This document shows positions 13,278 to 39,051 of a stretch of DNA of 64,000 nucleotides, piece by piece; position 1 is the first letter of the stretch, and each line of letters opens with the position of its first letter. This DNA comes from an uncultured Ignavibacteria bacterium. Lineage in GTDB: Bacteria; Zixibacteria; MSB-5A5; CAIYYT01. The notes below the pieces were generated by a model. That model was given only the letters and a program-made list of their open reading frames with translations, did not search any database and was not told where the DNA came from. A program made the translations under genes and the position numbers. The stretch lies in contig CAZIBI010000002.1 in NCBI GenBank assembly GCA_964537215.1, positions 64,001 to 128,000 of the forward strand, given 5' to 3'.

Positions 13278-13349
13278 TGCGTTTTGGACGACGCCGGTCG
13301 GAATATCATTGCTGACCGGCGTTTTTTTGTGCTTATTGGCAAGAATTGG

Positions 13350-14497: not shown

Positions 14498-14537
14498 TAT
14501 TGTAAATGGGACAAATCTAGATTGCTGAATTGGGAGA

Positions 14538-21399: not shown

Positions 21400-21431
21400 T
21401 CGGAAAGATACGGATCGTAATCAAATACACT

Positions 21432-22637: not shown

Positions 22638-22655
22638 TGCGCCTGGTAGTTGGAT

Positions 22656-23799
22656 AATGCGCCGAATCATCAAACAGCTGTTTGCAGCGGCATTATACTA
22701 CTCCGGACTTCTGGCATTGCTTGACTATTGCGCACTGGCGCTCACACGCAAACCCCATGAAGTCTTGCTTATGTATCATCGGGTGCTCGATGATCCCTTC
22801 TCTGAATCCGAATACGCCCAAACGGGAACCGCGGTCTCGACCAAGTCATTTGAAGCGCAGATGGTGTTCCTGGCGAAAAAGTTTACGGTGCTGACTGCCG
22901 CCGAATATGTCAAACGCCGCAAATCCGGCACGCCATTGCCGAAGAAATGTGCGGTAGTTACTTTTGACGATGGTTGGGCGGACAACTATGAAAACGCCTA
23001 TCCGATTCTCAAGAAGCACAAGATTCCCGCAACGATCTTTCTCTGCTCGGATTTTGTCAATTCCACCAAGAAGTTTTGGTTTCATGAAATGATTCACGCC
23101 ATCAAGTGGCAGAATCTAAGCGCACAGCAACTCGAACAGGCACTCAATCGATTTCAATCTCAAGCACCTGCGGGGGCTTCCCAGCCTGTGTCGCTTTCGA
23201 CCCACACAACCTGGAATGCTCTCATCAACAGTTTCTTTCGACTCGCCAAGACACTTAGCGCCGATCAACTGGGCGTGTTGTTGGCCGACCTCACCCGGAT
23301 AACCGGTAAATCCGACGACGATTGGAAAAGCAAGCGGTTCATCTTAAGCTGGGACGAGATCACTGCGATGGATCCGGCAATCATTGAGATTGGTTCGCAC
23401 GGCAAATCCCACCGGCTTCTGACAGCAATCTCGCGCGACGAATCCGCCCGCGAGTTGATCGAATCCAAGCGCGATATCGAAGAGAAATTGGGAAGAAGAG
23501 TCCTGACTTTTGCCTACCCGAACGGATCGTATGACGAAACGATCAAGCAGATGACTGCCGAAGCAGGCTATGAAGGCGCGTTCGGTGTGGGATTCGATCA
23601 CCTGGACTCCGACCTGTTTGCAGTATCTCGCTCTGGTGTGCACGAAGGCGCCATTGCCGGTTTTCGCGGCAAATTCTCGCCGGCAATCTGGGCGGCAAAA
23701 TTAAGCCCGGCATACCAACGGTGGTTCGACAAACGCAAAGGTCCGCAAGAAAAGGTCAATAACCGCAACAACGCCCACTATGCAATCGATGCGTTTTAA
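22656..23799 (+). CDS. Polysaccharide deacetylase (NodB/CE4 family).
   Basis: VTFDDGWADNYENAYPILKKHKIPATIFL is NodB motif 1. An N-terminal TM segment is present. The internal Met is chosen as start; the listed ORF (from 22336) overlaps the DegT gene. Confidence 0.7.
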
Positions 23800-23811
23800 T
23801 TCTGCGACACT

Positions 23812-24969
23812 ATGGCAACGACTAAGATAAATCTTCTTCATGTAGTCTTGGAAATGGACATCGGTGGTTTGCAGCGTCTGATCACTGACACGACTCTTGC
23901 TATGGATCGCGAAAAATTCAGTGTCGAAGTCGTCTGCCTTGACAGCCTTGGCTGTTTCGCTGAAGTCCTGCAAGCCAACGGCGTCAAAGTCACTTTGCTG
24001 CGCCGCCACGATCAACACCTCGCTCTGTACCCGATTCGACTCGCCCGCTATATGCGACAGCGCAAAGTCCATATCGTGCACATGCACCCCGGCAGTTTCA
24101 TCTTCGGCATACTCGCCGCAGTACTGGCGCGGGTGCCGGTTTCGGTTTACACCGAACATGGCCGCGCCGTCCCGGAGAGTCCCGCGCGTGTCAGGGAAGA
24201 CCGGGTCTCCGGCGTCTTTGTCGATCAGATCATTGCCGTCTCGAAAGAATTGGAGCTGTACCTGGCGGACGCGGTCAAGTTGCCGGCGCACAAGATCTGC
24301 ACCGTAATCAACGGCGTGAGGGTTTCGGAATTTGTCAAGAGGCCAAAGGATCCCGCGCTGCAGAAAGAATTCGGTCTTGCGCCGGACACAAAAGTTCTCG
24401 GCACTGTGGCTCGATTGGACGGCGTCAAAGATCAGTTGACCATGCTCAAAGCAGTAAAGATCGTCCGCGAAACAATTCCAGATGTGCGGCTGATGTTAGT
24501 CGGCGACGGTCCGGAACGATCGGAACTGGAAAAGTTCGCAAAAGCGAACGGCATGGAAGGGAATATGACCATCACCGGTCAGCGCAATGACGTGCCGCGA
24601 CTGATCAATCTCTTCGACATATTTTTGCTTTCCTCCTTGCGCGAAGGCACGAGCATATCTTTGCTCGAAGCAATGTCATCCGGTGTCGCCCCAATTGTCA
24701 CAAATGTCGGCGGCAATCCAGCCATTGTGAGTTCCCAAGTTGATGGAATTCTGGTCGAACCGCGCGATCCGCAAGGAATGGCCGACGCCATCATAGAATT
24801 GCTGCGTGACGACGACAAGCGAAAGCGCTTTGCCGAGGCTGCCGCGCTAAAAGTCCGTAATCATTACAGTATCGAAAATATGGTTCGCCAATACGTTGAA
24901 ATTTATACAAAGCACCTCGCCAAAAAGAGACGGTCGCGCTATCTTGTGGAGCAGTACGCCGGAAAATAA
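23812..24969 (+). CDS. Glycosyltransferase family 4 (GT-B, GT1-like).
   Basis: LLSSLREGTSISLLEAMSSGVAPIVTNVGGNPAIV is the E-x7-E region. Confidence 0.85.
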   Translation: MATTKINLLHVVLEMDIGGLQRLITDTTLAMDREKFSVEVVCLDSLGCFAEVLQANGVKVTLLRRHDQHLALYPIRLARYMRQRKVHIVHMHPGSFIFGILAAVLARVPVSVYTEHGRAVPESPARVREDRVSGVFVDQIIAVSKELELYLADAVKLPAHKICTVINGVRVSEFVKRPKDPALQKEFGLAPDTKVLGTVARLDGVKDQLTMLKAVKIVRETIPDVRLMLVGDGPERSELEKFAKANGMEGNMTITGQRNDVPRLINLFDIFLLSSLREGTSISLLEAMSSGVAPIVTNVGGNPAIVSSQVDGILVEPRDPQGMADAIIELLRDDDKRKRFAEAAALKVRNHYSIENMVRQYVEIYTKHLAKKRRSRYLVEQYAGK

Positions 24970-25026
24970 TGGACTCGAACGCAGGGATCTCGCGATGAAA
25001 GCTACCGCATTCAACAGGACTAACGC

Positions 25027-26178
25027 TTGAAGACGTCTGAAATCGTCCTGCTCGTAATTTTTGCCGCCGCAGTCGCTGAAATCTTGTGGTCATATCTCGG
25101 CTATCCGATGTTTCTCTTGATCTGTTCGAGACTCATCCGCCGGGAAAGCAAGAGCAAAGACTGGCTGCCGGATGTCGCCGTCGTGATTACTGCTCACAAC
25201 GAGGAAAAACGCATTCGCCAGAAGATTGAGAATACACTGGCTCTCGATTATCCGGCTGACAAACTGCACATCACTGTCGTTTCCGATGCTTCAACTGACG
25301 GGACCGAAGAAATCGTCCGCACGTTCAAGGATCGCGGCGTGTCGCTGATGATCATGCCGGAGCGGCGCGGCAAACACTATGGTCAGGGCAAAGGCGTCGC
25401 TGCCGCACCGGCAGAATTCGTTGTCCTGTCCGACGCGACAACATTTCTGAAAAGCGACGCAGTGCGGTTAATCATTCAAAATTACGCCGACCCGAACATC
25501 GGCTGTGTCTCTGGTTGCGATGATGTCATGGAGCACGAAGATAGCTCGGTGGGCGAAGGTGCCTATGTGCGCTACGAAATGGCGCTGCGCCGCCTGGAAA
25601 GCCGGGTGTCTTCACTCATTGGCGCCAGCGGATCCTTCTTTTCAGTGCGAAAGAGTCTATGCGATACCTGGATTGACGACATGTCGAGCGACTTCTACTT
25701 GCCGCTCACGTGTTACATCAAGGGATACCGCTCCATTCTCGATGAACGCGCGATCGGCCACTACAGCGTTCTCCATGATCCTTCGCGCGAGTTTCAACGT
25801 AAGCTGCGCACAATAGTCCACGGCCTGGAAGTACTCTTCCACTTCAAGAGAGTGCTAAATCCGTTCAAGTACGGAATTTACTCGATACAGCTTATTAGTC
25901 ACAAATTGTGCCGTTGGCTCGTGCCGTTCGCCATGATTGCCGCGCTGGTCTGTAATATTCTCCTGCTGCCTTACGGCACTGCTTACCAGATGCTCTTTGT
26001 GATCCACTTTGCGACTTACGTCCTGGCTGGCTTTGCGTTTCTTTACAAACCGGTGCAGAGCTTGACGCTGTTCAAAGTCCCGCTCTTCTTTGTAATGGCA
26101 AACCTTTCCATTCTCATTGCCTGGTACAAATTCCTGCGCGGAGAAAAGTACGTAGTATGGAAAGCAACCGAAAGATAG
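25027..26178 (+). CDS. Glycosyltransferase family 2 with C-terminal transmembrane helices.
   Basis: VVITAHNEEKRIRQKIENTLALDYPADKLHITVVSDASTDGTEEI is the GT-A region, followed by the DxD motif VVLSDAT. The C-terminal TM segments suggest a processive/synthase-like GT2. TTG start. Confidence 0.8.
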   Translation: MKTSEIVLLVIFAAAVAEILWSYLGYPMFLLICSRLIRRESKSKDWLPDVAVVITAHNEEKRIRQKIENTLALDYPADKLHITVVSDASTDGTEEIVRTFKDRGVSLMIMPERRGKHYGQGKGVAAAPAEFVVLSDATTFLKSDAVRLIIQNYADPNIGCVSGCDDVMEHEDSSVGEGAYVRYEMALRRLESRVSSLIGASGSFFSVRKSLCDTWIDDMSSDFYLPLTCYIKGYRSILDERAIGHYSVLHDPSREFQRKLRTIVHGLEVLFHFKRVLNPFKYGIYSIQLISHKLCRWLVPFAMIAALVCNILLLPYGTAYQMLFVIHFATYVLAGFAFLYKPVQSLTLFKVPLFFVMANLSILIAWYKFLRGEKYVVWKATER

Positions 26179-27293
26179 CGGTCTGCCACATCATTTCCGG
26201 AGACCTTTGGGCCGGCGCCGAGGCACAGGCGTTCACAATGATGTCGGCGCTGGCGAAGATACCTGCGATTGAAGTCTCGGCAATTGTCCTCAATCACGGA
26301 AAGCTTGTGCAAAAACTAAAAGAAGCCAATATCGCCGTTGCTGTCATTGACGAGAGGAAGTACAGCTTTCTGCAAATATTGAAAATTGCTGCCGAAATCG
26401 TTGAAGCGCGGCAGGCGAAGGTGCTGCACTCGCATCGCTACAAAGAAAATTTACTCGCGGCACTCATTAGGAAGCAGGGAAGACCAGTCTATTTGGTGCA
26501 GACCGTGCACGGTGTTCAGGAAAAATTCGCCGGCGTCAAGAGTCTGAAGATTGTCGCCTATGGGAAGTTGAATGAATTCATTTCCAATCGCTACTTTGAC
26601 CGTATTCTTGCGGTGTCTCGTGACATTCAGCAAACGCTTTCGGCGAAGTACCGCCCGGAATTGCTGCGCCACGTTGCCAATGCCATCGATCTCGATCAGA
26701 TCAAAATCACAAAATCACCGGCCGAAGTTCGCGCGTCGCTCGCGATCAAGCCGGGAGAATTGGTTATCGGGGCAGTCGGACGCATGGTGCCGATCAAAGG
26801 TTTTGAAGTGTTCCTGAAAGTAGCCCAGGAAATATTGAAGACTTCGCCACAGACAAGATTCGTTCTTGTCGGCGACGGACCGGAGTTGGAGAAGCTCAAG
26901 GCCCTTGCCGGCACTTTGGGAATTTCCGAACAGGTCGTGTTCACCGGTTTCCGCGACGACATTCTGGATGTCGTGAATGCTCTGGACATTTTCCTGATGA
27001 CCTCCTGGCATGAAGGAATTCCCGTCGCACTCTTGGAGGCAATGGCGCTGGAAAAACCGACGGTTGCCACTGGTGTTGGCGGCGTCAATGAAGTCCTTGA
27101 AAACGGCGACACTGGGTTGCTTGCCCCAGTAGGAGATTTTGTTGCACTTGCGCAACAGTGTGAAGTCCTATTAAAGTCGCCCGAGCGCAGAAGCGCCATG
27201 GGCAAATGCGCCCGCGCAAGAGTTGAGAGTGAGTACTGGTCGGTGCAGCAAAGCCACCGGCTGCAAAACATCTACACGGAACTGTGCAAGTAA
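26157..27293 (+). CDS. Glycosyltransferase family 4.
   Basis: FLMTSWHEGIPVALLEAMALEKPTVATGVGGVNEVLENGDTGLL. Confidence 0.85.
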   Translation: MESNRKIAVCHIISGDLWAGAEAQAFTMMSALAKIPAIEVSAIVLNHGKLVQKLKEANIAVAVIDERKYSFLQILKIAAEIVEARQAKVLHSHRYKENLLAALIRKQGRPVYLVQTVHGVQEKFAGVKSLKIVAYGKLNEFISNRYFDRILAVSRDIQQTLSAKYRPELLRHVANAIDLDQIKITKSPAEVRASLAIKPGELVIGAVGRMVPIKGFEVFLKVAQEILKTSPQTRFVLVGDGPELEKLKALAGTLGISEQVVFTGFRDDILDVVNALDIFLMTSWHEGIPVALLEAMALEKPTVATGVGGVNEVLENGDTGLLAPVGDFVALAQQCEVLLKSPERRSAMGKCARARVESEYWSVQQSHRLQNIYTELCK

Positions 27294-27295
27294 AT

Positions 27296-28546
27296 ATGCG
27301 AATTCTCTTTGTTTCACACTTCATACCGCACCCGCCGACCGGTGGAGCTTCGCTGCGAAATTACAACATCGTCAAGGAACTATCCCGCAACAACAGTCTG
27401 CATCTTGTGACTTTCACTCAGCGCGATCGCCATCCGACGCGCGAGAAAATCGCACTTAGCCGCGAAGTCCTCAAGGACTACTGCGAGGAGATGGCAATTA
27501 TCGATGTGCCCAGCGATTTCAGTTCGCTCAAGTGGTATTCGTTGCTTGGGTTCAACTTGTTTTCGCGCGAGCCGTATTCGGCCTGGCGGTTTTGGGCGCC
27601 GGAAATGGTGCAGGCGATTACTAATCAAATTGACAAGCACTCGTTCGACATCGTCCATGTCGACACGATCGCGCTCGCGGGTTACATTCGGCACCTGCGC
27701 CGTCTGCCCGCAATACTCAATCACCACAATGTTGAATCGACGCTGCTGCTGCGCCGCGCGGCCACAGAAAAGAATCCGGCAACGAAGGCCTACATCAATC
27801 TTCAAGGCAAGAAACTTCGGCGAGCCGAACAGCGCGCACTCGGCGAGTATGACGGCAACATCAGCGTCTCGGAACTCGATAGTCAGGAACTTCTGTCGTT
27901 GAATCCCGCCGCGACAGTTCGCGTGGTGCCGAACGGAACGGATACGGAGTACTTCAAACCGATTGACGGAGTTGCTGAAGACTTGAGTCTGGTATTCGCC
28001 GGTTCAATGGCATGGTACCCCAATGGTGATGCCATGATTCTCTTCGGCGAGAAAATCTGGCCCTTGATAAAGAAAGAGATTCCCAATATCACGATGAACC
28101 TGATTGGCTCTCGCGCTCCTGCTGAAGTCGTTCAATTTGGCGCAAATGACAGCAACTTCAAAGTACTGGGATTTGTCGACGATGTCCGCCCGACGATTGC
28201 GCGGGCAGCAGTTTACGTTGTTCCGATTCGCGTCGGGGGCGGGACCCGGCTTAAGATCCTCGATGCAATGGCAATGGGGAAAGCAATTGTCAGCCACCCG
28301 ATCGGTGCGGAAGGACTCGATGTTACTGACGGGAAAGATATCGTAATCGCCGAGGAGCCGGAAGCCTTCGCCAAATGCGTCATCGAACTGGTGCGCAACG
28401 AGCAGAAGCGGCGGCTAATCCGCGAACAAGCCCGCAAATCCGTCATAGAGAAATATTCCTGGTCGACGATTATTCCCCAATTAGAAAAATTCTACCGCGA
28501 GATCTCGGACCGAAAACGTGATAAGGTCATGGCGAAGAATGTTTGA
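27296..28546 (+). CDS. Glycosyltransferase family 4.
   Basis: GGGTRLKILDAMAMGKAIVSHPIGAEGLDVTDGKDIVIAE. ATG at 27296 is chosen; the listed ORF starts at 27284. Confidence 0.8.
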   Translation: MRILFVSHFIPHPPTGGASLRNYNIVKELSRNNSLHLVTFTQRDRHPTREKIALSREVLKDYCEEMAIIDVPSDFSSLKWYSLLGFNLFSREPYSAWRFWAPEMVQAITNQIDKHSFDIVHVDTIALAGYIRHLRRLPAILNHHNVESTLLLRRAATEKNPATKAYINLQGKKLRRAEQRALGEYDGNISVSELDSQELLSLNPAATVRVVPNGTDTEYFKPIDGVAEDLSLVFAGSMAWYPNGDAMILFGEKIWPLIKKEIPNITMNLIGSRAPAEVVQFGANDSNFKVLGFVDDVRPTIARAAVYVVPIRVGGGTRLKILDAMAMGKAIVSHPIGAEGLDVTDGKDIVIAEEPEAFAKCVIELVRNEQKRRLIREQARKSVIEKYSWSTIIPQLEKFYREISDRKRDKVMAKNV

Positions 28547-28570
28547 AGGGCAAAATCCCGGGACCAAAAG

Positions 28571-29662
28571 ATGAGCTCTGATACGCCCTTGGTAATATCT
28601 GCTGTTGGCGACATTATGCTTGGCGACCTTCCGGCCTGCTCTGGATTTGGCGTAGGCAGTATGATTGCCAAACACGGGCCGAAGTTTCCGTTCGAAAAAT
28701 GCGTCGCCGGGTTTGCCGGCAGCGACATAGTTATCGGTAATCTTGAAGTCGTGTTGTCTCGGTTTGATCCCCAAACCGATTCCTTCGCCAAGACTCACCT
28801 GCGTGCTCAACCGGAAGCCGTCGCCGGACTCACCTACGCCGGCATAAATGCCGTCACGTTAGCGAATAACCACATCATGCAACACGGCAGGGAAGCAGTA
28901 CTCGAAACGATCCGTGTCCTTGATCAAAACGCGATAGCCTATACTGGAATCGAATCAGCAGATTCCAAAATCAAGAACTTCCGCCTGATTGAAAAGAAGG
29001 GCCGACGGGTCGGTCTGCTCGGCTACAATTTTCGCCCCGAACAGTATTCTGTGTCGCCGCGAATGGACGTCGCCGGTAACCTCGACCGCATCTGCAGCGA
29101 CATCGAAGCTTACAAGGGGCAATGCGACTTTCTCGTGCTCTCGCTGCACTGGGGCGAGGAGTTTATCGGCCGTCCTTCACCGGAACAAGTGCAAATGGGC
29201 CGCAAATTCATTACCTGCGGAGCGCACGTTATTCTCGGTCATCACCCGCACATTTTGCAGGGCGTCGAACTCTACCGGGGCAGAGTCATAGCTTATAGCC
29301 TTGGCGATTTTGTATTCGATCTCTGGCCGAGTCGACTGCGCAAATCAATGATATTGCGGCTTGAGTTGGCGGGCAGCGATGACATCCGCTTTGAAATCAA
29401 GCCCATCCTGATAAATCGGAATTGGCAACCGGTGCTCTTGCAGGGTGAGGAAGCGTCACGACAGAGAACCGAGATCGAGCAATTGGCATCGTTAATTGAT
29501 ATCAACTCATCGATGGATGATTGGAATCGCGAGGTTGCCGACGAATTGCGAAAGTTCAGAAAAAGCGTCTATAGTCACTATCTCAAAAGTCTCCACCGAT
29601 TTGGCCCCAAACGACTGTTTTCGCTGGCAAAAGGGATTGTCGCAAACCGACTTACGCGTTAG
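28571..29662 (+). CDS. CapA/PgsA-family (PGA_cap, metallophosphatase-like) capsule-synthesis protein.
   Basis: ISAVGDIMLGD...ANNHIMQHGREAVLETIRVLDQNAIAYTG...VLSLHWGEE...ILGHHPH matches the CapA family. Confidence 0.7.
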   Translation: MSSDTPLVISAVGDIMLGDLPACSGFGVGSMIAKHGPKFPFEKCVAGFAGSDIVIGNLEVVLSRFDPQTDSFAKTHLRAQPEAVAGLTYAGINAVTLANNHIMQHGREAVLETIRVLDQNAIAYTGIESADSKIKNFRLIEKKGRRVGLLGYNFRPEQYSVSPRMDVAGNLDRICSDIEAYKGQCDFLVLSLHWGEEFIGRPSPEQVQMGRKFITCGAHVILGHHPHILQGVELYRGRVIAYSLGDFVFDLWPSRLRKSMILRLELAGSDDIRFEIKPILINRNWQPVLLQGEEASRQRTEIEQLASLIDINSSMDDWNREVADELRKFRKSVYSHYLKSLHRFGPKRLFSLAKGIVANRLTR

Positions 29663-29788
29663 ACGCCTTGGTCAAGTCGAATCGCAACACTGTCGATATT
29701 AAAGACAAGAGTTTAAGTCTGGCATTTCAACCTGCTTAAGGTAATCCGTAGGCGAATCGTTCGCCTTGAGTCACTGATCGGGAGGCAG

Positions 29789-31120
29789 ATGAATCCGTGG
29801 ATAGCAAAGAACGTTTTCTACCTGCCAATCGAACGACTGCGTGGAGAACCGATCACGCGCTATATGCGCGAGATCGCGGAGTTTGAGCATCTCTCCAGCG
29901 AGGAAATGTCGGCATTGCAATGGGACAGACTCAAAGCGCTTCTTGACCACGCCTACAAGAATAACTCCTTCTACCGCCAACAATTTGATCGAGTCGGCAT
30001 AATCCCGGAGGACATCAAGTCTCCGGCGGATTTTGAGCGGGTTCCATTCCTCACCAAGAAGCTCCTGCGGGAAAACTTCGCCAGCATGATGTCCAAGTCT
30101 GTTGGCAAAGTCTCGTTGCGAAAGACCTCTGGCTCGACCGGTACACCGCTGAAGCTGGCAAAGGATCGAACCGCAACTGCGTACATGGAAGCCTACATGT
30201 ACCATGTCTACGGCTGGTACGGAATCGAGATCGGAACCCGGCAAGGTCGCGTCTGGGGCATGCCCTTTGGATTTTCTGGACGTTCGATGACTCGAGTCAA
30301 GGACGTTTTGCTCAATCGCAGGCGATTGGTGTCGTTTGAGCTTAGTCGCGATGCCTGCCGCCTCTATTATCATCATCTTAAGAAATTCAAACCATATTTT
30401 CTCTACGGGCTGATTGCGCCGATTAGCGAATTCGCGCGTGAATTGGCCGGGTGCGGAATTGATCCGAAAGAGCTGGGACTTAAAGTTATCATCGCAACCG
30501 GCGAGAGACTGCATCCCGGAAAGAAAGAACACGCGGAGCGTGCCTTCGGCTGCCGGGTCGTAAACGAATATGGCTGCACCGAGTCCGGCATCATCGCATT
30601 TGAGTGTCCTTCCGGGAATTTACATGTTGCAAATCACAACCTGTTGGTAGAAATTGTGAATCCGGAAACCGGCGTAGCGGTAGCTGCGGGTGAGTCAGGT
30701 GAAGTTGTCTTGACCGAATTATTCGCGACGGGTATGCCGCTAATCCGTTATCGGATAGGTGATCTCGCCTGTAAATCAAACGAGCGATGCACCTGTGGAC
30801 GTCAGTCACCAATAATCGGAAGTGTTATCGGCCGAACGTCGGAACTAATCCCGACTCCGGACGGTCGCAAGGTCGCCGCCGCGTTGCTTGATTATGCGAT
30901 ACCGTCAAGCGTATCGAGATTTCGGGCCATTTTAACCGAAGTGGATCGCCTCGAGTTGTTGCTTGAGTGTCCGCAACCGCTGACAGAAGATGAACGCGAT
31001 TCGATTAAGAACAAGATGAGCCAATATCTCGGCAAGCAAATGCGTATAGAGCTTCGAATTGTCGGTAGCATTCCCAGCGATCCTTCCGGCAAACTTCGGT
31101 GCTTCGAATCGAGGATATAA
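29789..31120 (+). CDS. CapK/PaaK-like adenylate-forming enzyme (phenylacetate-CoA ligase/F390 synthetase superfamily), copy 1.
   Basis: The adenylation motif is LRKTSGSTGTPLKLAKD. The 443 aa length is typical of CapK-like proteins in capsule loci. Confidence 0.7.
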   Translation: MNPWIAKNVFYLPIERLRGEPITRYMREIAEFEHLSSEEMSALQWDRLKALLDHAYKNNSFYRQQFDRVGIIPEDIKSPADFERVPFLTKKLLRENFASMMSKSVGKVSLRKTSGSTGTPLKLAKDRTATAYMEAYMYHVYGWYGIEIGTRQGRVWGMPFGFSGRSMTRVKDVLLNRRRLVSFELSRDACRLYYHHLKKFKPYFLYGLIAPISEFARELAGCGIDPKELGLKVIIATGERLHPGKKEHAERAFGCRVVNEYGCTESGIIAFECPSGNLHVANHNLLVEIVNPETGVAVAAGESGEVVLTELFATGMPLIRYRIGDLACKSNERCTCGRQSPIIGSVIGRTSELIPTPDGRKVAAALLDYAIPSSVSRFRAILTEVDRLELLLECPQPLTEDERDSIKNKMSQYLGKQMRIELRIVGSIPSDPSGKLRCFESRI

Positions 31121-31182
31121 AATAAGCAATCCTTATGGCTGCTCTCCGGGCAGAGTAATCCTGCCGAGAGTTCAATGGAGAA

Positions 31183-32586
31183 GTGACAACGACGAATCTA
31201 ATGCAATCAATCTATGAGGCTTCGCCGGCATTCATACAAAACGCCGGCGTCTCGCTTTATGGCTTGAAAATATATTGGCGCGAACTCGGCCCTAAATTTG
31301 AACGCCAACTCGCCGAGTTTGAATCCCATTTCAAATGGTCCGAGTCAGAACTGCACGCGTACCAAAACGAGCGGCTGCAGCGTTTGATTGCGCACTCCTA
31401 CGAGAACGTCCCATATTACCGGGATCTGATGAATAAGCAAAAACTCACCCCGTCCGATTTTCGTGACATCGCGGACCTTCCGAAATTGCCGCTGTTAACT
31501 CGAAATATGGTGATGGAAAACGGCGACAAACTTTTGGCTCGCGGTCTTCGGCGGGCCGACCAAATTGTCGGACATACTTCCGGTACAACCGGGTCGCCCT
31601 TGCGACTGGTTTGGGATCGACACGTTTGCCTAATGAAAACAGTTGTTGACTGGCGACAAAAACGCCTCGCCGGGATCAATCCGGGCGATCGGATCGCTTT
31701 TTTCCTGGGCAGACAAGTTGCGCCGCTGCGTCAAACTAAACCGCCGTTTTGGCGCCACAATTGGGTGATGAATCATCTCTTTTGCTCGTCGTTCCACTTG
31801 TCGCCGGCAAATATGACATTTTACATGGACAAGCTGTCCAAATTCCGGCCGCGCGCGCTGGAAGGATATCCTTCAACGATGTCGGTCCTAGCTGGATTTT
31901 TGAATCAGCGCAATGAGACGTTTCCGGTGCAAGCTGTGTTCACTTCTTCCGAGACTCTGCTGCCTTCGCAGCGCGCAGCGATTGAAAAAGCATTCGCATG
32001 CAAGGTCTTCGATTTCTATGGCATGGCCGAGCGTGTGGTGTTTGCGACCGAGTGCGAACTCCACGGCGGCAAGCACGTCAATACCGATTTCGGCCTCGTT
32101 GAAATTTCGAGTTCTTCCGGCGGTACATCTTCGCCCAACAGGTTGGGAAGAGTCATTGCAACCGGATTGCATAACTACGCCATGCCGTTGATTCGTTATG
32201 AAACAAGTGATGTGACTTCGCTGGAACCCAATCCTTGTCGCTGCGGACGGCCGATGCCATTAATGAGCGGTGTTACCACCAAGGATGAAGATATCGTCGT
32301 GACTCCGGACGGGCGCTATGTGTCATCCTCGATTCTCAACGCGGTAACTCATCATCTGGTCAACGTCAAAGAATCGCAGATCGTGCAGGAAACCCGGTCG
32401 CGCGTTTTCATGCGTGTTGTCCCGCGTCCGGCTTACACGGCAGCCGACACCGAATTCATTTGCGCCGAGCTTCGCAAAGTACTTGGCGCCGAAGTCTCGG
32501 TCGGCGTTGACATCGTCGAGTCAATCGAACGCACCGCAAACGGGAAATTTCGCTGGGTGATTTCCAAGGTGCCGCTTGGATTTTGA
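31183..32586 (+). CDS. CapK/PaaK-like adenylate-forming enzyme, copy 2.
   Basis: GHTSGTTGSPLRLVWD. Start may be GTG at 31183 or ATG at 31201. Confidence 0.7.
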   Translation: MTTTNLMQSIYEASPAFIQNAGVSLYGLKIYWRELGPKFERQLAEFESHFKWSESELHAYQNERLQRLIAHSYENVPYYRDLMNKQKLTPSDFRDIADLPKLPLLTRNMVMENGDKLLARGLRRADQIVGHTSGTTGSPLRLVWDRHVCLMKTVVDWRQKRLAGINPGDRIAFFLGRQVAPLRQTKPPFWRHNWVMNHLFCSSFHLSPANMTFYMDKLSKFRPRALEGYPSTMSVLAGFLNQRNETFPVQAVFTSSETLLPSQRAAIEKAFACKVFDFYGMAERVVFATECELHGGKHVNTDFGLVEISSSSGGTSSPNRLGRVIATGLHNYAMPLIRYETSDVTSLEPNPCRCGRPMPLMSGVTTKDEDIVVTPDGRYVSSSILNAVTHHLVNVKESQIVQETRSRVFMRVVPRPAYTAADTEFICAELRKVLGAEVSVGVDIVESIERTANGKFRWVISKVPLGF

Positions 32587-32619
32587 TCTCGATTTCTATG
32601 GCAAAGCGGAAGTAAACCA

Positions 32620-33804
32620 ATGCTGCAACTGAAAACTTTGACGACCGTTGATGAGTTGGCAGCAATTGCCGACTCTTGGGACCAGTTGCTAAGTCAAAGC
32701 CTCAACAATAGCTACTCGCTTTCCTGGACTTGGCTATCACATTGGCTCAATGTCTACCTGGGAAATGACCGCCTGCTCTGTGTGTTAGTTTACGACGACG
32801 CAAGACTCGTTGGAATAGCACCGTTCTGGGTCAAGAAATTGCGTCAACTCGGGATCGGGCGCTTACGCATCCTCCGGTTCATTGGCTCCGAGGAAGTCTG
32901 TGCCGACCATCTCGATCTCATTATTTCGCGTAAGAATTCCAAAGCAATTTGCGCAGCCATTTGGGAAGAGCTTCACGGCCCCTTGCGCAAGGAGTGGGAT
33001 TTCTGGGAGTACAACTTTGTTCCTGCGATGTCGCCTGTGCTCCAGTCGCTGACCGAACTCGCAGACAAAGACAATCGCTGCCTTAGCATGAACATCACCG
33101 GGTTCACGATTTGTCCTTACGCAATGTTGCCGGACTCGTGGGAGACTTACATCACGTCCATCAGCCGCAGCTCAAGAGGGAATCTGAAGACGTCCACAGA
33201 GCTCCTGACCAAAGCTGGAAATCTACAGTTGCGTATCTGTGATTCGCACGAGAGCCTCCCGGGTTATCTGGAGACCCACATGGATCTGCACCGCAAATCT
33301 TGGAACGATCGCGGCCAGGACGGCAGCTACACAACCGAGACATTCAAGCGCTTTCATCGCGAGTTATCGCAGGATTTGCTTTCCCGCGGACAACTGATGT
33401 TGTGCAGCCTGGAATTGGACGGCGTGGCAATCGGAAGTTTCTACGGTTTTATCCACGAAAAAGTCATTTACTATTACCTTCTCGGCGTCAACCGGGCTGC
33501 CGTGCCGAAAGCTGGAATCGGACGGGTTCTGCTTGGCAAGTGCATCGAAGCTGCCATTGGCCGCAAGTGCACCGAGTTCGATATGCTGCGCGGATTCGAG
33601 GAGTACAAGTACTACTGGACGGACACCGAACGGCGCGAACTTCTGATCACATTCCACAATCGCTCGATCAACGCGCTAATTTTCATCTTGAGGCAGTTCG
33701 TCAATCGATTCAGTAAGCAGGTCGGCAAAGTCTTACTCGGAGGCAAAACGAAAGCCGTCAAGCAGTGGCTCGGCAAAGGAACACCAGATCGGAGCAGCAA
33801 TTGA
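32620..33804 (+). CDS. FemAB/CelD-like (Acetyltransf_6, PF13480-type) acyltransferase.
   Basis: Family-typical N-terminus LAAIADSWDQL.....YSLSWTWLSHW plus a C-terminal GNAT-like fold. 394 aa. Confidence 0.6.
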   Translation: MLQLKTLTTVDELAAIADSWDQLLSQSLNNSYSLSWTWLSHWLNVYLGNDRLLCVLVYDDARLVGIAPFWVKKLRQLGIGRLRILRFIGSEEVCADHLDLIISRKNSKAICAAIWEELHGPLRKEWDFWEYNFVPAMSPVLQSLTELADKDNRCLSMNITGFTICPYAMLPDSWETYITSISRSSRGNLKTSTELLTKAGNLQLRICDSHESLPGYLETHMDLHRKSWNDRGQDGSYTTETFKRFHRELSQDLLSRGQLMLCSLELDGVAIGSFYGFIHEKVIYYYLLGVNRAAVPKAGIGRVLLGKCIEAAIGRKCTEFDMLRGFEEYKYYWTDTERRELLITFHNRSINALIFILRQFVNRFSKQVGKVLLGGKTKAVKQWLGKGTPDRSSN

Positions 33805-34886
33805 AAGAGCAGATTAAGCAGAACGCAAAGAAGTTTCTCTATTACTCCGGTTACTACTCGCTGCTTGAACGCTTGCACGCACCCTCTGAACATCGTCTGT
33901 TGATAATCATGCTGCATGACATCGTCAGAGACGAAGAATGGGCTTCCACTTGGTACAATGCCGTTAGCCACAGCGAGTCTCAACTCGAAGCGATGTTCGT
34001 TGCGATCAAGAAGCGCTTTCGGGTAATAACCGTTGAAGACGCCGTGCAGGAATTCAAGACGCACGGAATGCTCAAGGAAAAGAGCATCGCCATTACATTC
34101 GATGACGGCTATCTGTCAACGTATGAGATTGTATTTCCTCTCCTAAAGAAACATGGCGTCACGGCGACTACTTATATTCCCACTGGGTGGATCAACGGAG
34201 AGATTACTCCATGGTGGCTAACGCTAACGGGAACTATCGAACACAGCGTCCTTGAGCCCAGCATGGTTAGTGCGATTGAGAAGATTATCGGGACATCTGT
34301 TGATCCTCGGATCGCCACTTTGGGCAATTCCGGACAAGCGAAACGCTTCCTGGACGACGCACTGGGTGGGATGTTGATGCGACAGGAGGACAAGACTCGC
34401 CGAAAGATGCTTCAGGACATATACCAGGTGCTTAACGAGGGCAAGGACTATCAACCCCGCATCGAAAGGCCGATGTCGTGGGAGCAAATCAAAGACATGG
34501 CCGCACACGGCAATCGCTTTGGCGCCCATACTTGCACCCACCCGAATCTGTCGTTTGTTGATATGGAAACCGCCGAGCGCGAAATAGTGGAGTCGCGACG
34601 GATTATTGAAGAGCGCCTCGGAGAGAAGATCTCTGGATTTGCCTACCCTTACGGTTATGATGTCGCCGGTTATCAGCGGCTTGAAGGTCTACTGCAAAAG
34701 CACGGATTTCTTTATGCTGTCACCAGTTGGTGGGGGCACGTCGACCACACTGCCGATTTCTACCGCCTGCGCCGCACCGGCGTGGTGATCTCCACATCGC
34801 CTGCAATCATTGGTCGCGATCTCGGAATTCAATACTGTGATGAACAGCGCCCCTTGACTCTACCGCCGCGCAGCTCCGGCCACTAG
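33765..34886 (+). CDS. Polysaccharide deacetylase (NodB/CE4 family).
   Basis: IAITFDDGYLSTYEIVFPLLKKHGVTATTYIPTGW is NodB motif 1. The start is uncertain; the listed ORF overlaps the upstream gene by ~40 bp. Confidence 0.7.
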   Translation: MARQRNTRSEQQLKEQIKQNAKKFLYYSGYYSLLERLHAPSEHRLLIIMLHDIVRDEEWASTWYNAVSHSESQLEAMFVAIKKRFRVITVEDAVQEFKTHGMLKEKSIAITFDDGYLSTYEIVFPLLKKHGVTATTYIPTGWINGEITPWWLTLTGTIEHSVLEPSMVSAIEKIIGTSVDPRIATLGNSGQAKRFLDDALGGMLMRQEDKTRRKMLQDIYQVLNEGKDYQPRIERPMSWEQIKDMAAHGNRFGAHTCTHPNLSFVDMETAEREIVESRRIIEERLGEKISGFAYPYGYDVAGYQRLEGLLQKHGFLYAVTSWWGHVDHTADFYRLRRTGVVISTSPAIIGRDLGIQYCDEQRPLTLPPRSSGH

Positions 34887-36253
34887 GGCCTGCTCTTCGA
34901 CCGCACGAAAGCATCATCCAACAGCCGCGCAAAATCCCGCGTCAATTCTCGTTTGTAAAGGTGCTTAAGCGACTGCAGCGACTTGCTCCGGTCGCGCGAG
35001 CCGCTGCGCAGGCGCGTCGCGATAGTCTGAATGGCCGATTTGATCGCGACATGGTCTTCCGGATGAGCAATTTGCACATTCTCGTAACCCTTGAGAATAT
35101 TGGCTGTGGCACCCGGAGGCGCCATTGCCAGAATTTCGTTTCCGGTTGCCAAATACTCAAAGGTCTTTGCCGGGACTTCAGTAGGAGTGAGGTTGGACTG
35201 TAGCAGCAACAGCACGTCCGCTGATCCGATCAGTCGCAAGTATTCGGATCGCTTGACGAGCGCTTTGAACTGAATCACGTCTGCGAGTCCGCATTGTTCG
35301 ATTATTCTTTGCAATGATGTTGTATCGATTTCAATCGGTCCGTAAAAATCTACCACAATCCCTTCGCGCTTGAGAAAACCGCTGCTGACCAGTTCTCCCA
35401 ATGCAACAACGAATTGGCGCGGATCCCGGCCCTCGTACAGCGTACCGGCGTACAGGAAATGAATAGTCTCCTTCGGATCGTGATCTTCGGGCGCTGCTCC
35501 CGGAAAATCATCGATATCGAATCCATTGATGACAGATTGGCAGTTCGTCTCCAGCACTGGATAGTACTGCTTCTTCAGCACATCGCGAAATTCTGGCGTG
35601 GTTGTCATGACTAGGATTGAGCGATTAACCGTGCGCCGTTCCATCCAACATTCAAATCGCCACGCCAAACGAGTCGTGAACTTCTCTGGTCTCTGTGCCA
35701 CTACCAACGGATCGCGAAAGTCGGCGACCAGCGGCTTGCCGGTGATCAGACTCACGACCCAAGCGATCCAATGTCCCGTTCGCGGCGGCCCCGAGGCGTA
35801 GATCAGATCGACTTTTTCGCGTCGCGCTACTTTGACTCCCAACCAAATTCCGGGAAACAACCATCCGATACAGTAGTCGGGCGTCCAGAATATCCAACGA
35901 AACAGCGACTTCCACTTGAAACCGCTCCCGCCTTGTTGCAGACTTGACGTGAGCGACTGCAAACTTTCGTTGCCCGACCCGGTGGACTGCTTGCCACGTA
36001 CCGATCGAAGCATCTTCTTTGCCCACAAGTAACAATCGCCAACAGTCGGCCATTTGCTGCTGCGCTCGACTGTGCACTCGAACGGAAGCGGTGTAGGGTC
36101 GGTCTTCTGATAATATTTAGACTTAACTGTGACGATAATTGCCTTCCAATCCGACTCGGGCAGGAACTTGGCGAACTTGACTGTGCGCACTGCTCCGACC
36201 TCAAGGTCCGGATGAAAATAATAGGCAATCATCAGAATCTTTCTCGGCATCAA
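34883..36253 (-). CDS. Glycosyltransferase family 4.
   Basis: MMPRKILMIAYYFHPDLEVGAVRTVKFAKFL is the GT4 N-domain. The C-domain is ...DVLLLLQSNLTPTEVPAKTFEYLATGNEILAMAPPGA. Confidence 0.7.
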   Translation of the reverse strand: MMPRKILMIAYYFHPDLEVGAVRTVKFAKFLPESDWKAIIVTVKSKYYQKTDPTPLPFECTVERSSKWPTVGDCYLWAKKMLRSVRGKQSTGSGNESLQSLTSSLQQGGSGFKWKSLFRWIFWTPDYCIGWLFPGIWLGVKVARREKVDLIYASGPPRTGHWIAWVVSLITGKPLVADFRDPLVVAQRPEKFTTRLAWRFECWMERRTVNRSILVMTTTPEFRDVLKKQYYPVLETNCQSVINGFDIDDFPGAAPEDHDPKETIHFLYAGTLYEGRDPRQFVVALGELVSSGFLKREGIVVDFYGPIEIDTTSLQRIIEQCGLADVIQFKALVKRSEYLRLIGSADVLLLLQSNLTPTEVPAKTFEYLATGNEILAMAPPGATANILKGYENVQIAHPEDHVAIKSAIQTIATRLRSGSRDRSKSLQSLKHLYKRELTRDFARLLDDAFVRSKSRP

Positions 36254-36328: not shown

Positions 36329-37810
36329 TCATGCCCCGGAGCGGAGATCTTTGATGGCCGAAGTCGGACTCTTGAAGAATCGCTGCACCCAACTCTTTTC
36401 CTCTGGCGTCAGCACACCGCTAAAATACACAAGTACCGGGAATAGCAGCGCCGCCACCGTATTTGTCAGCAAAGACAAGGGGAGATTCTCGATACGAATA
36501 TAGGAAAAGGGCACCAAAATAAGCAGGAACAAGAACCCGAGCATAACGACTCTCTTAATGTCGTAAGTAACATGATATAGCTGTTGTGCAAAGTACACAT
36601 CAAGTGTGAGCCTCACGACATAAGAAGCCAGTGTCGAGATCGCGGCACCCCATGCACCCATCGTCGGAATCAAAAGGAAGTTCAATACGATATTCGCGAC
36701 CATTGCCGATGAAGTCGAGTACGCGCGATATTTTGACTTGCCCGAAAGCAATATTCCGGCGCCGGCAATGTAGAGTGCGCCGTTGAGAACGTACGACAAA
36801 CTAATCAGCGCGACATATTTATACGCGCTCCAATACGACTCGTCCGCCATGATGCGCAAAACATCTCGGGTCAATAGAGATAATCCGAGGCAGAGCGCCA
36901 ATGCTATCAGCAGATAGTAAATCAACACTTTGGCAAATATCGGCTTTCCATCTTCCTGCTTGCCATACTTGAACATCTCGGTCCCCCAAACCGACATGAA
37001 AGGGCCGTTGATCAGCATCGAGAGAATCATTCCAAATGTGTACGACATCGAATAAATCCCGACTGTTCCGAGGTCGGCGAAGTAGTTCAAAAAGTATCTA
37101 TCCGAATAAGTCAGCATGAAGGACGATACATCCGAAACGATAATTGGCATTCCAAATCGAAGCATTTCAACATATTTGCTGAAATCAAATCCGATTCCGA
37201 CTTTTCGCAGGGTCGAAAATGTCAGATACAGCGCAAAGATGGTTGATGAGATTAGGGTGCTGTAAAGAACACCGTAGATCCCGAGACCAAGTCCCACCAA
37301 AAACCAGATATTGAGACTTAGCTGCATAACCATCTTAATCAAACTGATTCCCACGTACTTGCCGCTCTGCAGCTTGATGCGCAGGAAGATCATCGGTATC
37401 TCGATGCCGCTGGCGAGAAACATCCCGAGAAAGGTCAGGCGAAAGTAACCGGTATACTCCTCGCTCGAAAATATCAGCTGCGATAGCTGCGGTGACAGCA
37501 GCATTGCCGTCGCTGTGATGACCGCCATCACCGAGATCGAACCCAGCAGCGCCGAACTTATCACCTTGCGTCTTGACGGCTCGTCCTCAAATTTCTGATA
37601 GGTGCGCACAACCGCACTCGCCATACCAAGACCGAACAGCGTCGCAACAATATCAATCGTCAACCCAAGCAACGACAGCGTGCCGTAGTTTTCCGTGGAG
37701 AGGTAGGCAGTGTAGACCGGTATCATCAGGAAGCCGACAATGCGTCCCAATATGATACCGAACATGTAGACCGAGCCGTGCTTGAGAATATTTTTTAGGT
37801 CTTTGTACAT
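36329..37810 (-). CDS. Wzx-type polysaccharide flippase (MOP superfamily, polysaccharide biosynthesis protein).
   Basis: 493 aa with ~12-14 TM segments and the typical Wzx architecture. Confidence 0.75.
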   Translation of the reverse strand: MYKDLKNILKHGSVYMFGIILGRIVGFLMIPVYTAYLSTENYGTLSLLGLTIDIVATLFGLGMASAVVRTYQKFEDEPSRRKVISSALLGSISVMAVITATAMLLSPQLSQLIFSSEEYTGYFRLTFLGMFLASGIEIPMIFLRIKLQSGKYVGISLIKMVMQLSLNIWFLVGLGLGIYGVLYSTLISSTIFALYLTFSTLRKVGIGFDFSKYVEMLRFGMPIIVSDVSSFMLTYSDRYFLNYFADLGTVGIYSMSYTFGMILSMLINGPFMSVWGTEMFKYGKQEDGKPIFAKVLIYYLLIALALCLGLSLLTRDVLRIMADESYWSAYKYVALISLSYVLNGALYIAGAGILLSGKSKYRAYSTSSAMVANIVLNFLLIPTMGAWGAAISTLASYVVRLTLDVYFAQQLYHVTYDIKRVVMLGFLFLLILVPFSYIRIENLPLSLLTNTVAALLFPVLVYFSGVLTPEEKSWVQRFFKSPTSAIKDLRSGA

Positions 37811-37956: not shown

Positions 37957-39051
37957 GTGCCAAAAAAGTTACTATGCATCGTCGGGACTCGACCGAATTT
38001 TGTGAAGTCCGCCCCGCTCATGCGCGAATTAAAAAAGAACTCCGCCAGTTTTGATGCCAAGCTCGTTCACACTGGACAGCACTACGATCAGAATCTCTCG
38101 GACTGGTTATTCAACGACCTCGGCATGACGCCACCCGATATCAGTCTCGGCGTCGGTTCCGGTTCGCACACGCAGCAGACCGCCAAGATCATGCTCGGGC
38201 TCGAGGAAGCCATCACCAGCGAGAAAGCGGACTTGGTGGTGGTCTTTGGCGATGTTAATTCAACTCTGGCTGCAGCCGTGGTTGCGGCGAAAATGGGCGT
38301 GCCGGTTGCGCACGTCGAATCAGGACTGCGTAGTTTCGATCGCGCGATGCCGGAAGAAATCAACCGCATCGTCACGGATCACTTGTCCGATATGCTGTTT
38401 GTCACCGAGGAATCCGGCATGCACAACCTCAAGCAAGAGGGCATCGCCGACAGCAAAGTGTTCTTCACGGGAAACATCATGATCGATTCGCTGCTCGCGA
38501 CTCTCGACATTGTCAAGCGCTCCGATATCCTCGACAAACTGAAACTGCAGCCGCGTCAATACGCCGTCATGACACTTCATCGTCCTTCTAATGTCGACGA
38601 CCCCGAAACTTTGAAATACGTCCTCAATACTGTCGCAGAGGTTGCACGCAAAGTTCCGGTCATTTTCCCGTGCCATCCGCGGACACGCAATAACATCTCG
38701 CGATTCGCGCTGGACGAAGTTGTCAAGAATAGCTCACTAACGCTCATCGATCCCCTTGGCTATGTCGATTTCTGCCGTCTAACCTACGAATCGAAATTCG
38801 TCTTGACCGATTCCGGCGGCATTCAGGAAGAAACGACTTATCTGCAGATTCCTTGTATTACGATGCGCGAGAATACCGAACGTCCAATCACAGTTACCGT
38901 GGGTACCAACGTGATGACCGGCAACGATCGGGCGAAGATTCTGGCCACTGTGGATGCAATCATTAGTGGTAACCCGAAGCAGGGGCGCATTCCGGATCTC
39001 TGGGATGGCCACACTGCCGCGCGAATTGTTGAAATCTTGAAAAAGTTGTAG
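37957..39051 (+). CDS. wecB: UDP-N-acetylglucosamine 2-epimerase (non-hydrolysing).
   Basis: VHTGQHYDQNLSDWLFNDLGMTPPDISLGVGSGSHTQQTAKIM...VVFGDVNSTLAAAVVAAKMGVPVAHVESGLRSFDRAMPEEINR matches WecB/MnaA closely. Confidence 0.9.
   Translation: MPKKLLCIVGTRPNFVKSAPLMRELKKNSASFDAKLVHTGQHYDQNLSDWLFNDLGMTPPDISLGVGSGSHTQQTAKIMLGLEEAITSEKADLVVVFGDVNSTLAAAVVAAKMGVPVAHVESGLRSFDRAMPEEINRIVTDHLSDMLFVTEESGMHNLKQEGIADSKVFFTGNIMIDSLLATLDIVKRSDILDKLKLQPRQYAVMTLHRPSNVDDPETLKYVLNTVAEVARKVPVIFPCHPRTRNNISRFALDEVVKNSSLTLIDPLGYVDFCRLTYESKFVLTDSGGIQEETTYLQIPCITMRENTERPITVTVGTNVMTGNDRAKILATVDAIISGNPKQGRIPDLWDGHTAARIVEILKKL

Follow-up and report, generated by a model that had tools for sequence, protein, structure and literature searches.

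This analysis concerns a stretch of 64,000 nucleotides from an uncultured Ignavibacteria bacterium (positions 64,001 to 128,000 of contig CAZIBI010000002.1; hereafter the window), and in particular five contiguous genes at 28571-34886, which lie inside a locus for exopolysaccharide (EPS) synthesis. A preliminary description of the DNA had read these genes as encoding a CapA-like protein, two CapK/PaaK-like enzymes, a CelD/FemAB-like transferase and a NodB-type deacetylase, and both the open reading frames (ORFs) and searches with profile hidden Markov models (HMMs) confirmed this content. The genes are as follows, with the modules explained below.

28571-29662, plus strand: PGA_cap protein (CapA/PgsA/MslH family, calcineurin-like fold), 363 amino acids, apparently soluble; PF09587 at 202 bits, E = 1.4e-59; module A.
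29789-31120, plus strand: CapK1, a PaaK-like putative adenylate-forming enzyme of the ANL type, 443 amino acids; DVU1553_fam_AMP at 162 bits; module A.
31183-32586, plus strand: CapK2, a divergent putative adenylate-forming enzyme of the CapK type, 467 amino acids, start codon uncertain; DVU1553 at 149 bits; module A.
32620-33804, plus strand: tandem GNAT of the CelD/BcsL type with a predicted FemX fold, 394 amino acids; PF13480 (Acetyltransf_6) at E = 1.2e-26; module B.
33765-34886, plus strand: CE4 (NodB-homology) de-N-acetylase, 373 amino acids, start possibly a few codons later; PF01522 at E = 1.9e-24; module B.

Because the synteny of the five genes is kept in other metagenome-assembled genomes (MAGs) at 50-80% amino-acid identity, they are genuine genes rather than ORFs arisen by chance. 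They form the 3' end of a co-directional array of 14 genes (20368-34886); the gaps at the block are 24, 126, 62 and 33 nucleotides, and the last pair (32620/33765) overlaps by 40 nucleotides. A scan of 19.5-38.2 kb for promoters and terminators gave counts no higher than those of shuffled controls. Hydropathy profiles of all five proteins were devoid of transmembrane-like segments and hydrophobic N-termini, and the products are apparently cytoplasmic, soluble tailoring enzymes.

Comparison with about 20 related loci on genome and metagenome contigs (records of approximately 20 kb, with flanks read to about 10 kb) revealed that the block consists of two independently shuffling modules: module A, which comprises the PGA_cap gene with one or two CapK genes, and module B, which comprises the PF13480 GNAT and CE4 genes. 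A scan of genome contigs contributed 6 loci and one of metagenome contigs 9, and the co-occurrence counts rest on the roughly 20 loci in all. The modules separate between loci, and comparative synteny thus rules out a single conserved five-gene cassette; the five genes are contiguous in the window, and the notion of one cassette does not hold. The set anchored on CapK1 contains 17 readable loci, from Ignavibacteria, Zixibacteria, KSB1, Calditrichia, other MAGs and two plasmids of cultured bacteria. The three closest loci (L001, L002 and L004, with CapK1 identities of 59%, 51% and 50%, respectively) share the order FemAB, DegT, CE4, GT4, GT2, GT4, GT4, PGA_cap, CapK, CapK, and in related loci genes for a GT4-like protein and Wzx directly abut CapK2. 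The PF13480 GNAT and second CE4 of the window were found in none of the 17 loci. PGA_cap occurs with CapK in seven of them (L001, L002, L004, L010, L012, L018 and L028) and also in L025; because PGA_cap-like proteins are rare (25,266 of 1.84 billion protein-cluster representatives, ~1.4e-5), this association is far above chance. Without the GNAT, module A was seen from MAGs of the Fibrobacteres-Chlorobi-Bacteroidetes (FCB) group to a plasmid of Deinococcus actinosclerus SJTR (L028; CP029777.1, record 283768-290530), on which the order is a PglF/CapD-like dehydratase, a hypothetical protein, PGA_cap (annotated as hypothetical), CapK and a Wzy-like protein.

Module B was followed from its GNAT. 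In the three loci anchored on this gene (L024, L025 and L026, at 64, 62 and 54% identity), CE4 stands directly after the GNAT in every case. Neither CapK nor PGA_cap was found within 10 kb of the GNAT/CE4 pair in L024, and in L026 CapK lies 9 kb away; in L025, PGA_cap, a single CapK2-type gene, the GNAT and CE4 stand in a row. The genome-neighbourhood comparison therefore bore out the recurrence of PGA_cap with CapK and of the GNAT with CE4, but not the unity of the five genes. One further match, on a Burkholderia plasmid (L027), lies in a non-polysaccharide context and is uninformative.

On a motif test, both CapK proteins are assigned to the ANL superfamily of adenylate-forming enzymes. CapK1 carries the P-loop TSGSTGTP, the motif EYGCTES and the C-terminal lysine in SGK, and CapK2 carries TSGTTGSP, FYGMAER and the C-terminal lysine in NGK; in CapK1, residues T113, S114, G115, S116, G118, P120, E260, Y261, G262, E265, G434 and K435 are invariant or nearly so across 27 homologs. 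The best NCBIfam model for both proteins was that of the DVU_1553-family ligases, at scores below its cutoff, and the entries of the Protein Data Bank (PDB) closest to CapK1 are PaaK (4R1L) and the PaaK-like ligases 6SIW and AjiA1 (6WUQ). In precomputed annotation, PF27533.1 (CapK_C) is assigned to a protein identical to CapK1 (P0001), and PF27533 to the CapK2 orthologs in L001, L002 and L004, which are 77%, 71% and 51% identical to CapK2, respectively; the exact CapK2 sequence from its GTG start was not found in the protein collection. CapK1 and CapK2 are only 28% identical, and each type occurs alone elsewhere (CapK1 in L008, L009, L012, L014, L015, L029 and L030, CapK2 in L025), which indicates that the two work independently. 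An obligate CapK1/CapK2 heterodimer is therefore unlikely.

The neighbours of CapK hint at its chemistry. An AsnB-type glutamine amidotransferase gene directly follows CapK in L009, L029 and L030 (at about 11.3-13.3 kb), and in L013 (8664-12741) a tandem CapK pair is followed by a pyridoxal phosphate-dependent decarboxylase of the ornithine/diaminopimelate/arginine type, a possible amine supplier; both neighbours fit a chemistry that joins carboxyl groups and amines. A July 2026 study of Vibrio cholerae showed that the glycine amide on the carboxyl group of N-acetylgulosaminuronic acid (GulNAcA) in the lipid-linked disaccharide of Vibrio polysaccharide (VPS) depends on VpsH (PMC13463779). VpsH had long been annotated as PaaK-like, and the authors of that study see a partial similarity to CapK-like proteins; further assembly of VPS proceeds without it. 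The evidence is genetic, and the authors left the activation chemistry open (PMC13463779). VpsH appears to be the only CapK-like enzyme of a glycan pathway that has been tested genetically, a parallel that we draw from annotation and context. Like the CapK proteins of the window, it is PaaK/CapK-like and is encoded inside a Wzx/Wzy polysaccharide cluster that has a WecB-type epimerase. In contrast, the window has two divergent paralogs and a PGA_cap partner, no such partner is described in the VPS paper, and a WecC-type dehydrogenase is not encoded in the window. A search of the literature on PaaK-like genes in O-antigen amide formation returned nothing useful.

For the PGA_cap protein, the closest solved structure is that of the lasso-peptide epimerase MslH (8GQ9, E = 2e-17). 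MslH is a calcium-dependent epimerase of the C-terminal tryptophan of a lasso-peptide precursor and binds one metal, and its authors proposed that CapA is an epimerase of poly-gamma-glutamate (PMC10406935, PMC8179263). The catalytic dyads of MslH are His88/Asp91 and His295/Asp11, and the metal ligands are Glu44, Asn87, His259 and His261. The window protein belongs to the same Pfam family (PF09587) as MslH and CapA/PgsA, and most metal-binding and catalytic residues are conserved: D14, E59, N100, H101, H193, E197, H225 and H227 are kept in it and in 150 relatives of ~360 amino acids. However, Asp91 of MslH is replaced by Gln104 (glutamine in 105, glutamate in 24 and aspartate in 16 of 151 proteins), His261 is replaced by Gly195, and the score against the MslH model NF038314 is 73 bits, far below the cutoff of 700. 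MslH, CapA/PgsA and the window PGA_cap all accompany an ATP-dependent amide-forming system, which in the window would be CapK. Unlike CapA/PgsA, the window protein lacks a membrane anchor (it begins directly at the VGD motif, with a maximal 19-residue hydropathy of 1.57 and no transmembrane segment), pgsB/capB (Mur-ligase-like) and pgsC/capC are absent from the scanned window ORFs, and no lasso-peptide genes are present beside it.

In the more distant loci (31-38% identity), PGA_cap is found as part of fusion proteins, whose genes are all immediate neighbours of a CapK1-type gene. The partner domain is CE4 in L010 (1322-3271; a KSB1 MAG) and in L018 (2540-4552; a metagenome contig), and GT9 in L012 (11424-13565); these fusions point to a glycan substrate. 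Literature searches on PGA_cap in polysaccharide loci gave nothing useful, and the recurrent PGA_cap-CapK partnership, with its CE4 and GT9 fusions, is not described in the open literature that we searched.

The GNAT of module B is predicted to have the FemX double-GNAT fold. With its AlphaFold2 model (predicted local distance difference test score (pLDDT), 93.8), the nine best Foldseek matches in the PDB were FemX, FemA and Sbb17 (E = 1e-11 to 2e-9; template modelling (TM) scores, 0.65-0.71), followed by Sba18 and the aminoacyl-phosphatidylglycerol synthase domains of the MprF/A-PGS type. Sbb17 and Sba18 are amino-sugar aminoacylases that depend on aminoacyl-tRNA. The protein shares with FemX, FemA, FemB, Orf11, Sba18 and Sbb17 the tandem-GNAT fold (TM ~0.7 to FemX) and a conserved C-terminal lysine in an [FY]K..W motif; by contrast, it is only ~10% identical in sequence, and in HMM searches it matched PF13480 and PF00583 and none of PF02388, TIGR03019 or any NCBIfam family. 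Its invariant K330 aligns weakly with the lysine of HFKKQW in the TIGR03019 protein of the locus (hhalign E = 1e-3, probability 22%), an alignment suggestive of a Fem-type catalytic lysine. Because the donor of FemX-fold enzymes of solved structure is aminoacyl-tRNA, a product of ordinary aminoacyl-tRNA synthetases, the GNAT would need no CapK-activated donor. As for Orf11, Sba18 and Sbb17, a sugar amine is a plausible acceptor; Orf11 aminoacylates the amino sugar of streptothrisamine using Gly-tRNA (PMC12945691). Literature on the function of CelD, BcsL and PF13480 yielded nothing useful and no characterised PF13480 enzyme, nor was a characterised member of the fixed PF13480-GNAT/CE4 pair found in the literature searched.

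The CE4 protein at 33765-34886 matches PF01522 at 86.4 bits (cutoff 23.1) in two stretches, the domain being split by an insertion of ~90 residues. Its motifs MLHD (48), TFDDG (112), HTCTH (255) and YPYG (294) follow a PgaB/IcaB-like order, and its best NCBIfam matches resemble the N-terminal domain of these proteins; the PgaB model TIGR03938 covers residues 44-144 at 62.6 bits, versus a cutoff of 321.9. In contrast to PgaB and IcaB, it carries the insertion and is devoid of a signal peptide or lipoprotein signal (maximal 19-residue hydropathy, 0.89). The orthologs in L024, L025 and L026 have 348-364 amino acids. A pairing of this kind recalls the synthesis of Nod factors, in which the cytoplasmic CE4 de-N-acetylase NodB is followed by the N-acyltransferase NodA; the acyltransferase of the window is, however, unrelated to NodA.

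The block belongs to a polysaccharide locus that spans about 14.5-57.3 kb of the window. The locus type is known, namely a Wzx/Wzy EPS locus with PEP-CTERM-associated genes, and so is each domain family. In addition to the genes listed here, the locus holds a tyrosine autokinase, two hexapeptide acetyltransferases, a Wzy/O-antigen-ligase-like protein, a methyltransferase, GT4 and GT2 glycosyltransferases, a chain-length determinant, an ATP-pyrophosphatase-like protein and, at 48682-49449, a protein with a PEP-CTERM tail.

17715-18695, minus strand: possible deacetylase-like protein, 326 amino acids; DUF2334 at E = 0.013 (sub-threshold), N-terminal FSVFDDTD; 4-nucleotide overlap with the gene at 18692.
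18692-19819, minus strand: tandem GNAT resembling N-myristoyltransferase (NMT); matches only PF13527/PF00583, residues 13-100.
20368-21399, plus strand: FemAB-family XrtA/PEP-CTERM-associated protein; TIGR03019 at 319.6 bits (cutoff 260), PF02388 at E = 5e-12.
21432-22637, plus strand: DegT/DnrJ/EryC1 sugar aminotransferase; PF01041 at E = 2.6e-42.
22657-23799, plus strand: first CE4 deacetylase, paralog of 33765-34886; PF01522 at E = 1.9e-26, phmmer match to the paralog at E = 5e-30.
34883-36253, minus strand: weakly GT4-like gene, convergent to the block.
36329-37810, minus strand: Wzx-type flippase, convergent to the block.
37957-39051, plus strand: WecB, non-hydrolysing UDP-N-acetylglucosamine 2-epimerase, supplying N-acetylmannosamine; TIGR00236 at 334.8 bits (cutoff 210).
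52303-53277: NAD-synthase-like ATP pyrophosphatase, XrtA-style acyl-activation set.
53324-53602: acyl carrier protein (ACP), 92 amino acids, DSMGILE motif, same set.
53659-55227: TIGR03098-like acyl ligase, same set.
55281-57293: TIGR03108-like AsnB amidotransferase, same set.

The assignment to a PEP-CTERM locus, already made in the preliminary description, is supported by the TIGR03019 protein, the PEP-CTERM tail and the homologs of XrtA-type chain-length, ligase and amidotransferase proteins. The named set of XrtA loci comprises TIGR03019, TIGR03087/88, TIGR03097, TIGR03098 and TIGR03108, and the window shares with such loci a TIGR03019 protein above cutoff, homologs of the stp1/stp2 glycosyltransferases, of the ligase-like and chain-length proteins and of the tyrosine kinase, an acyl ligase with an ACP, homologs of the AsnB amidotransferase and a PEP-CTERM protein. 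It differs from them in that most of its members score below the equivalog cutoffs and in that PGA_cap/CapK and PF13480/CE4 stand outside the named set. With the set at 52303-57293, the locus has another source of activated acyl groups, separate from the first. Exosortase (XrtA/EpsH), UDP-sugar dehydrogenase and sugar 4,6-dehydratase genes were absent from the scanned ORFs of the 64-kb window; as a PEP-CTERM protein, DegT and WecB are nevertheless encoded there, their partners must be elsewhere.

The count of three FemAB-like genes that had been proposed for the locus is reduced to two. The 20368 protein scores above the TIGR03019 cutoff and the 32620 protein has the predicted FemX fold, whereas the 18692 protein was rejected as FemAB-like: the top PDB matches of its AlphaFold2 model (pLDDT 87) were all NMT (TM ~0.5), and hhalign gave a probability of 0.1% to the PF13480 family. 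N-myristoyltransferase is an acyl-CoA-dependent enzyme. Similarly, two of three proposed deacetylases stand, since phmmer recognised only the CE4 proteins at 22657-23799 and 33765-34886; the third (17715-18695) is marginal and shows no phmmer similarity to these paralogs. The ORF of the first CE4 is open from 22336, but the ATG at 22657 suits the lengths of its orthologs (354-383 amino acids). The FemAB-DegT-CE4 trio is kept in L001, L002, L024 and L029, and WecB is conserved in L001, L002, L004 and L025. In total, the locus has three adjacent or nearly adjacent pairs of a deacetylase-like protein and a tandem GNAT (17715/18692, 20368/22657 and 32620/33765), which fits de-N-acetylation followed by re-N-acylation or aminoacylation. 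The proposal of a polymer that is de-N-acetylated and then re-acylated or aminoacylated therefore gains from these pairs and from the FemX fold, but not in its further part, the supply of the transferred substrates by CapK.

The GT2 glycosyltransferase at 25027-26178 has its best, though weak, similarity to the processive synthases PgaC/IcaA and NodC. Together with the PgaB-like deacetylases, it hints at an element of N-acetylglucosamine oligomers in the repeat unit.

From the gene families, the predicted FemX fold, the way in which the genes co-occur as modules and the lack of export signals, we propose that two independent cytoplasmic tailoring modules decorate the repeat unit, a picture that, taken as a whole, we give about an even chance of being right. 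Both modules would act on the undecaprenyl-diphosphate-linked repeat unit or on its nucleotide-sugar precursors. In module B, the cytoplasmic CE4 would take the N-acetyl group off an N-acetylhexosamine, and the FemX-fold GNAT would then acylate the freed amine, most probably from aminoacyl-tRNA and less probably from acyl-CoA or acyl-ACP; the precedents would be FemX, which acts on peptidoglycan precursors, and Orf11/Sba18, which act on the amino sugar of streptothrisamine. In module A, each CapK would adenylate a carboxylate with ATP, after which an amide bond would be formed on the glycan. By analogy with VpsH and its glycine on GulNAcA, the likeliest direction of this reaction would be one in which the carboxyl group of a sugar is coupled to an amino acid or amine, and the two CapK paralogs would make two different linkages. 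PGA_cap would subsequently process the product, the likeliest activity being epimerisation of the attached residue at its alpha carbon. Such a residue would bear an N-acyl group and a free alpha-carboxylate, and would thus be the same kind of substrate as that of MslH and the one proposed for CapA.

Several observations weigh against this proposal. Neither the window nor the 20-kb related loci yielded a UDP-sugar 6-dehydrogenase or another gene for uronic acids, and only WecB is present; this counts as weak evidence, because the dehydratase or oxidoreductase expected with DegT is absent too and precursor genes thus lie elsewhere. The likeness of CapK to VpsH is one of annotation and context, and the VpsH evidence itself is genetic only. 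The two replaced MslH residues and the low score of PGA_cap against the MslH model leave an epimerase activity not assured, and the PGA_cap::CE4 fusions beside CapK hint at a possible tie between module A and de-N-acetylation, which would bring it nearer to the idea in the preliminary description. As regards module B, no characterised PF13480 enzyme was found in the literature searched, and acyl-CoA or acyl-ACP is a possible donor, given the ACP and acyl ligase at 53324-55227.

The alternative closest to the preliminary description is that the five genes constitute one pathway, in which the CapK proteins activate amino acids or other acids as adenylates or CoA thioesters and the FemAB-like proteins or GNATs move the acyl groups onto amines unmasked by CE4. 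We consider this unlikely. The five genes are indeed contiguous in an operon-like array, the nearest characterised relatives of CapK (PaaK and the DVU_1553 family) are CoA ligases, the locus contains GNATs that could take acyl-CoA (including the NMT-like 18692 protein), many CapK loci have a deacetylase, and L025 combines PGA_cap, CapK, GNAT and CE4 in a row. However, CapK pairs occur without the PF13480 GNAT in L001, L002 and L004, CapK occurs without any FemAB-like gene in L009, L012, L013, L028 and L030, and the GNAT/CE4 pair occurs without CapK in L024. VpsH, moreover, works on a glycan carboxyl group and is not a supplier of acyl donors (PMC13463779). This separation of the modules, together with the use of aminoacyl-tRNA by the solved enzymes closest to the GNAT, speaks against the earlier proposal that CapK-activated substrates feed the transferases, which is not supported.

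In a different arrangement, which we judge to be rather improbable, the CapK proteins would be stand-alone amide synthetases that adenylate a free acid or amino acid and directly N-acylate the sugar amines freed by CE4 enzymes, with no GNAT involved and with PGA_cap assisting in deacetylation or acylation. The fusions of PGA_cap to CE4 directly beside CapK in L010 and L018 favour such a link, as do a PIG-L deacetylase that L012 encodes two genes downstream of its PGA_cap::GT9 fusion and the CE4 genes in 9 of the 17 readable loci anchored on CapK1 (in L013 the CE4 was identified by precomputed Pfam annotation only). The PDB relatives 6SIW and AjiA1 (6WUQ) are also in keeping with it, being PaaK-like ligases that form ester or amide bonds without CoA. 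In contrast, L028 contains PGA_cap, CapK and Wzy and no deacetylase within 9 kb, and L004 has none within 10 kb. Furthermore, the sole characterised chemistry of the PGA_cap family needs a free alpha-carboxylate, which an aminoacyl group linked to a sugar amine does not offer.

Nucleotidyl transfer, in which CapK would place AMP on a hydroxyl or phosphate group of the glycan in the manner of coenzyme F390 synthetase, a member of its family, and PGA_cap would be a phosphodiesterase for that linkage, seems highly improbable. Models of F390 synthetase match both CapK proteins (94 and 51 bits), one homolog, from Geotalea (P0097), bears the name 'adenylyltransferase' in its source record, the fold of PGA_cap is that of metallophosphoesterases, with a weak match to YmdB in L010, and the fusion in L012 joins it to GT9, a family that uses ADP-heptose. 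Nevertheless, the F390 scores are far under the cutoff of 458.7, PGA_cap does not carry the DxH motif found in two-metal phosphoesterases, MslH as the only relative that has been characterised is a one-metal epimerase, and the genetics of VpsH point to amide formation (PMC13463779).

Finally, the notion that the CapK genes are ordinary catabolic phenylacetate-CoA ligases present by chance is effectively refuted by HMM cutoffs and gene context and has a negligible probability: despite the generic label 'phenylacetate-CoA ligase' that Joint Genome Institute annotations give to homologs, CapK1 and CapK2 reach only about one fifth of the PaaK cutoffs (119.7 and 104.9 versus 646.3 bits for TIGR02155; 137 and 114 versus 700 bits for NF041878), no paa catabolic genes (paaABCDE, paaG, paaZ or similar) were found among the scanned ORFs of the window, and in every related locus the CapK genes are in conserved synteny with glycosyltransferases, Wzx and Wzy. 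The view that they serve polysaccharide tailoring and not phenylacetate catabolism is thereby sustained.

The proposal of two tailoring modules can be extended to a broader and more speculative one, which we regard as doubtful: PGA_cap and CapK, seen here in Ignavibacteria, Zixibacteria, KSB1 and Deinococcus, may form a module that is widespread across phyla and decorates glycans with amino acids or short peptides. CapK would link amino acids or a short isopeptide by amide bonds to the lipid-linked repeat unit, and PGA_cap would convert the attached residue to its D-form. If true, the epimerase chemistry of CapA and MslH would extend from peptides to polysaccharides, the soluble PGA_cap subfamily of ~360 amino acids would acquire its first general function and, with the GNAT/CE4 pair at work as well, a glycan-peptide hybrid rich in aminoacyl groups would result.

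EPS loci of the exosortase type are common in flocs, sediments and biofilms, and the chemistry of their polymers is almost unknown. The present locus varies a known type in an interesting, though not a revolutionary, way; should our reading be wrong, it would be one more decorated EPS cluster, and the stakes are accordingly moderate. Our analysis nevertheless resolves what was a list of genes into two tailoring modules that can be tested, and the VpsH result supplies a concrete hypothesis for CapK-type enzymes. It offers a handle on two long-unassigned families, CapK and the soluble CapA-like proteins, and the partnership of PGA_cap with CapK could reveal a role of the CapA family outside poly-gamma-glutamate synthesis. 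As the Deinococcus actinosclerus SJTR plasmid is a cultured carrier of the pair, genetics is feasible.

Two further features were observed in the window. A protein of 1908 amino acids (41511-47237) has many fibronectin type III/immunoglobulin-like repeats and an F5/8 type C (discoidin) domain. L001, L002 and L004 also have it next to the locus, conserved at 55% identity, and the protein may be secreted and may bind or process the EPS. In addition, an integrative or mobilisable element (3848-14498) adjoins the EPS locus, with the following features.

3848-5509, minus strand: serine recombinase.
5821-6297: helix-turn-helix protein.
6331-7047: RuvC-like protein.
8452-9771: Replic_Relax relaxase.
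11623-13092: TraG/VirD4-like protein.
13284-14465: tyrosine integrase, whose 3' end overlaps tRNA-Leu(taa) at 14411-14498.

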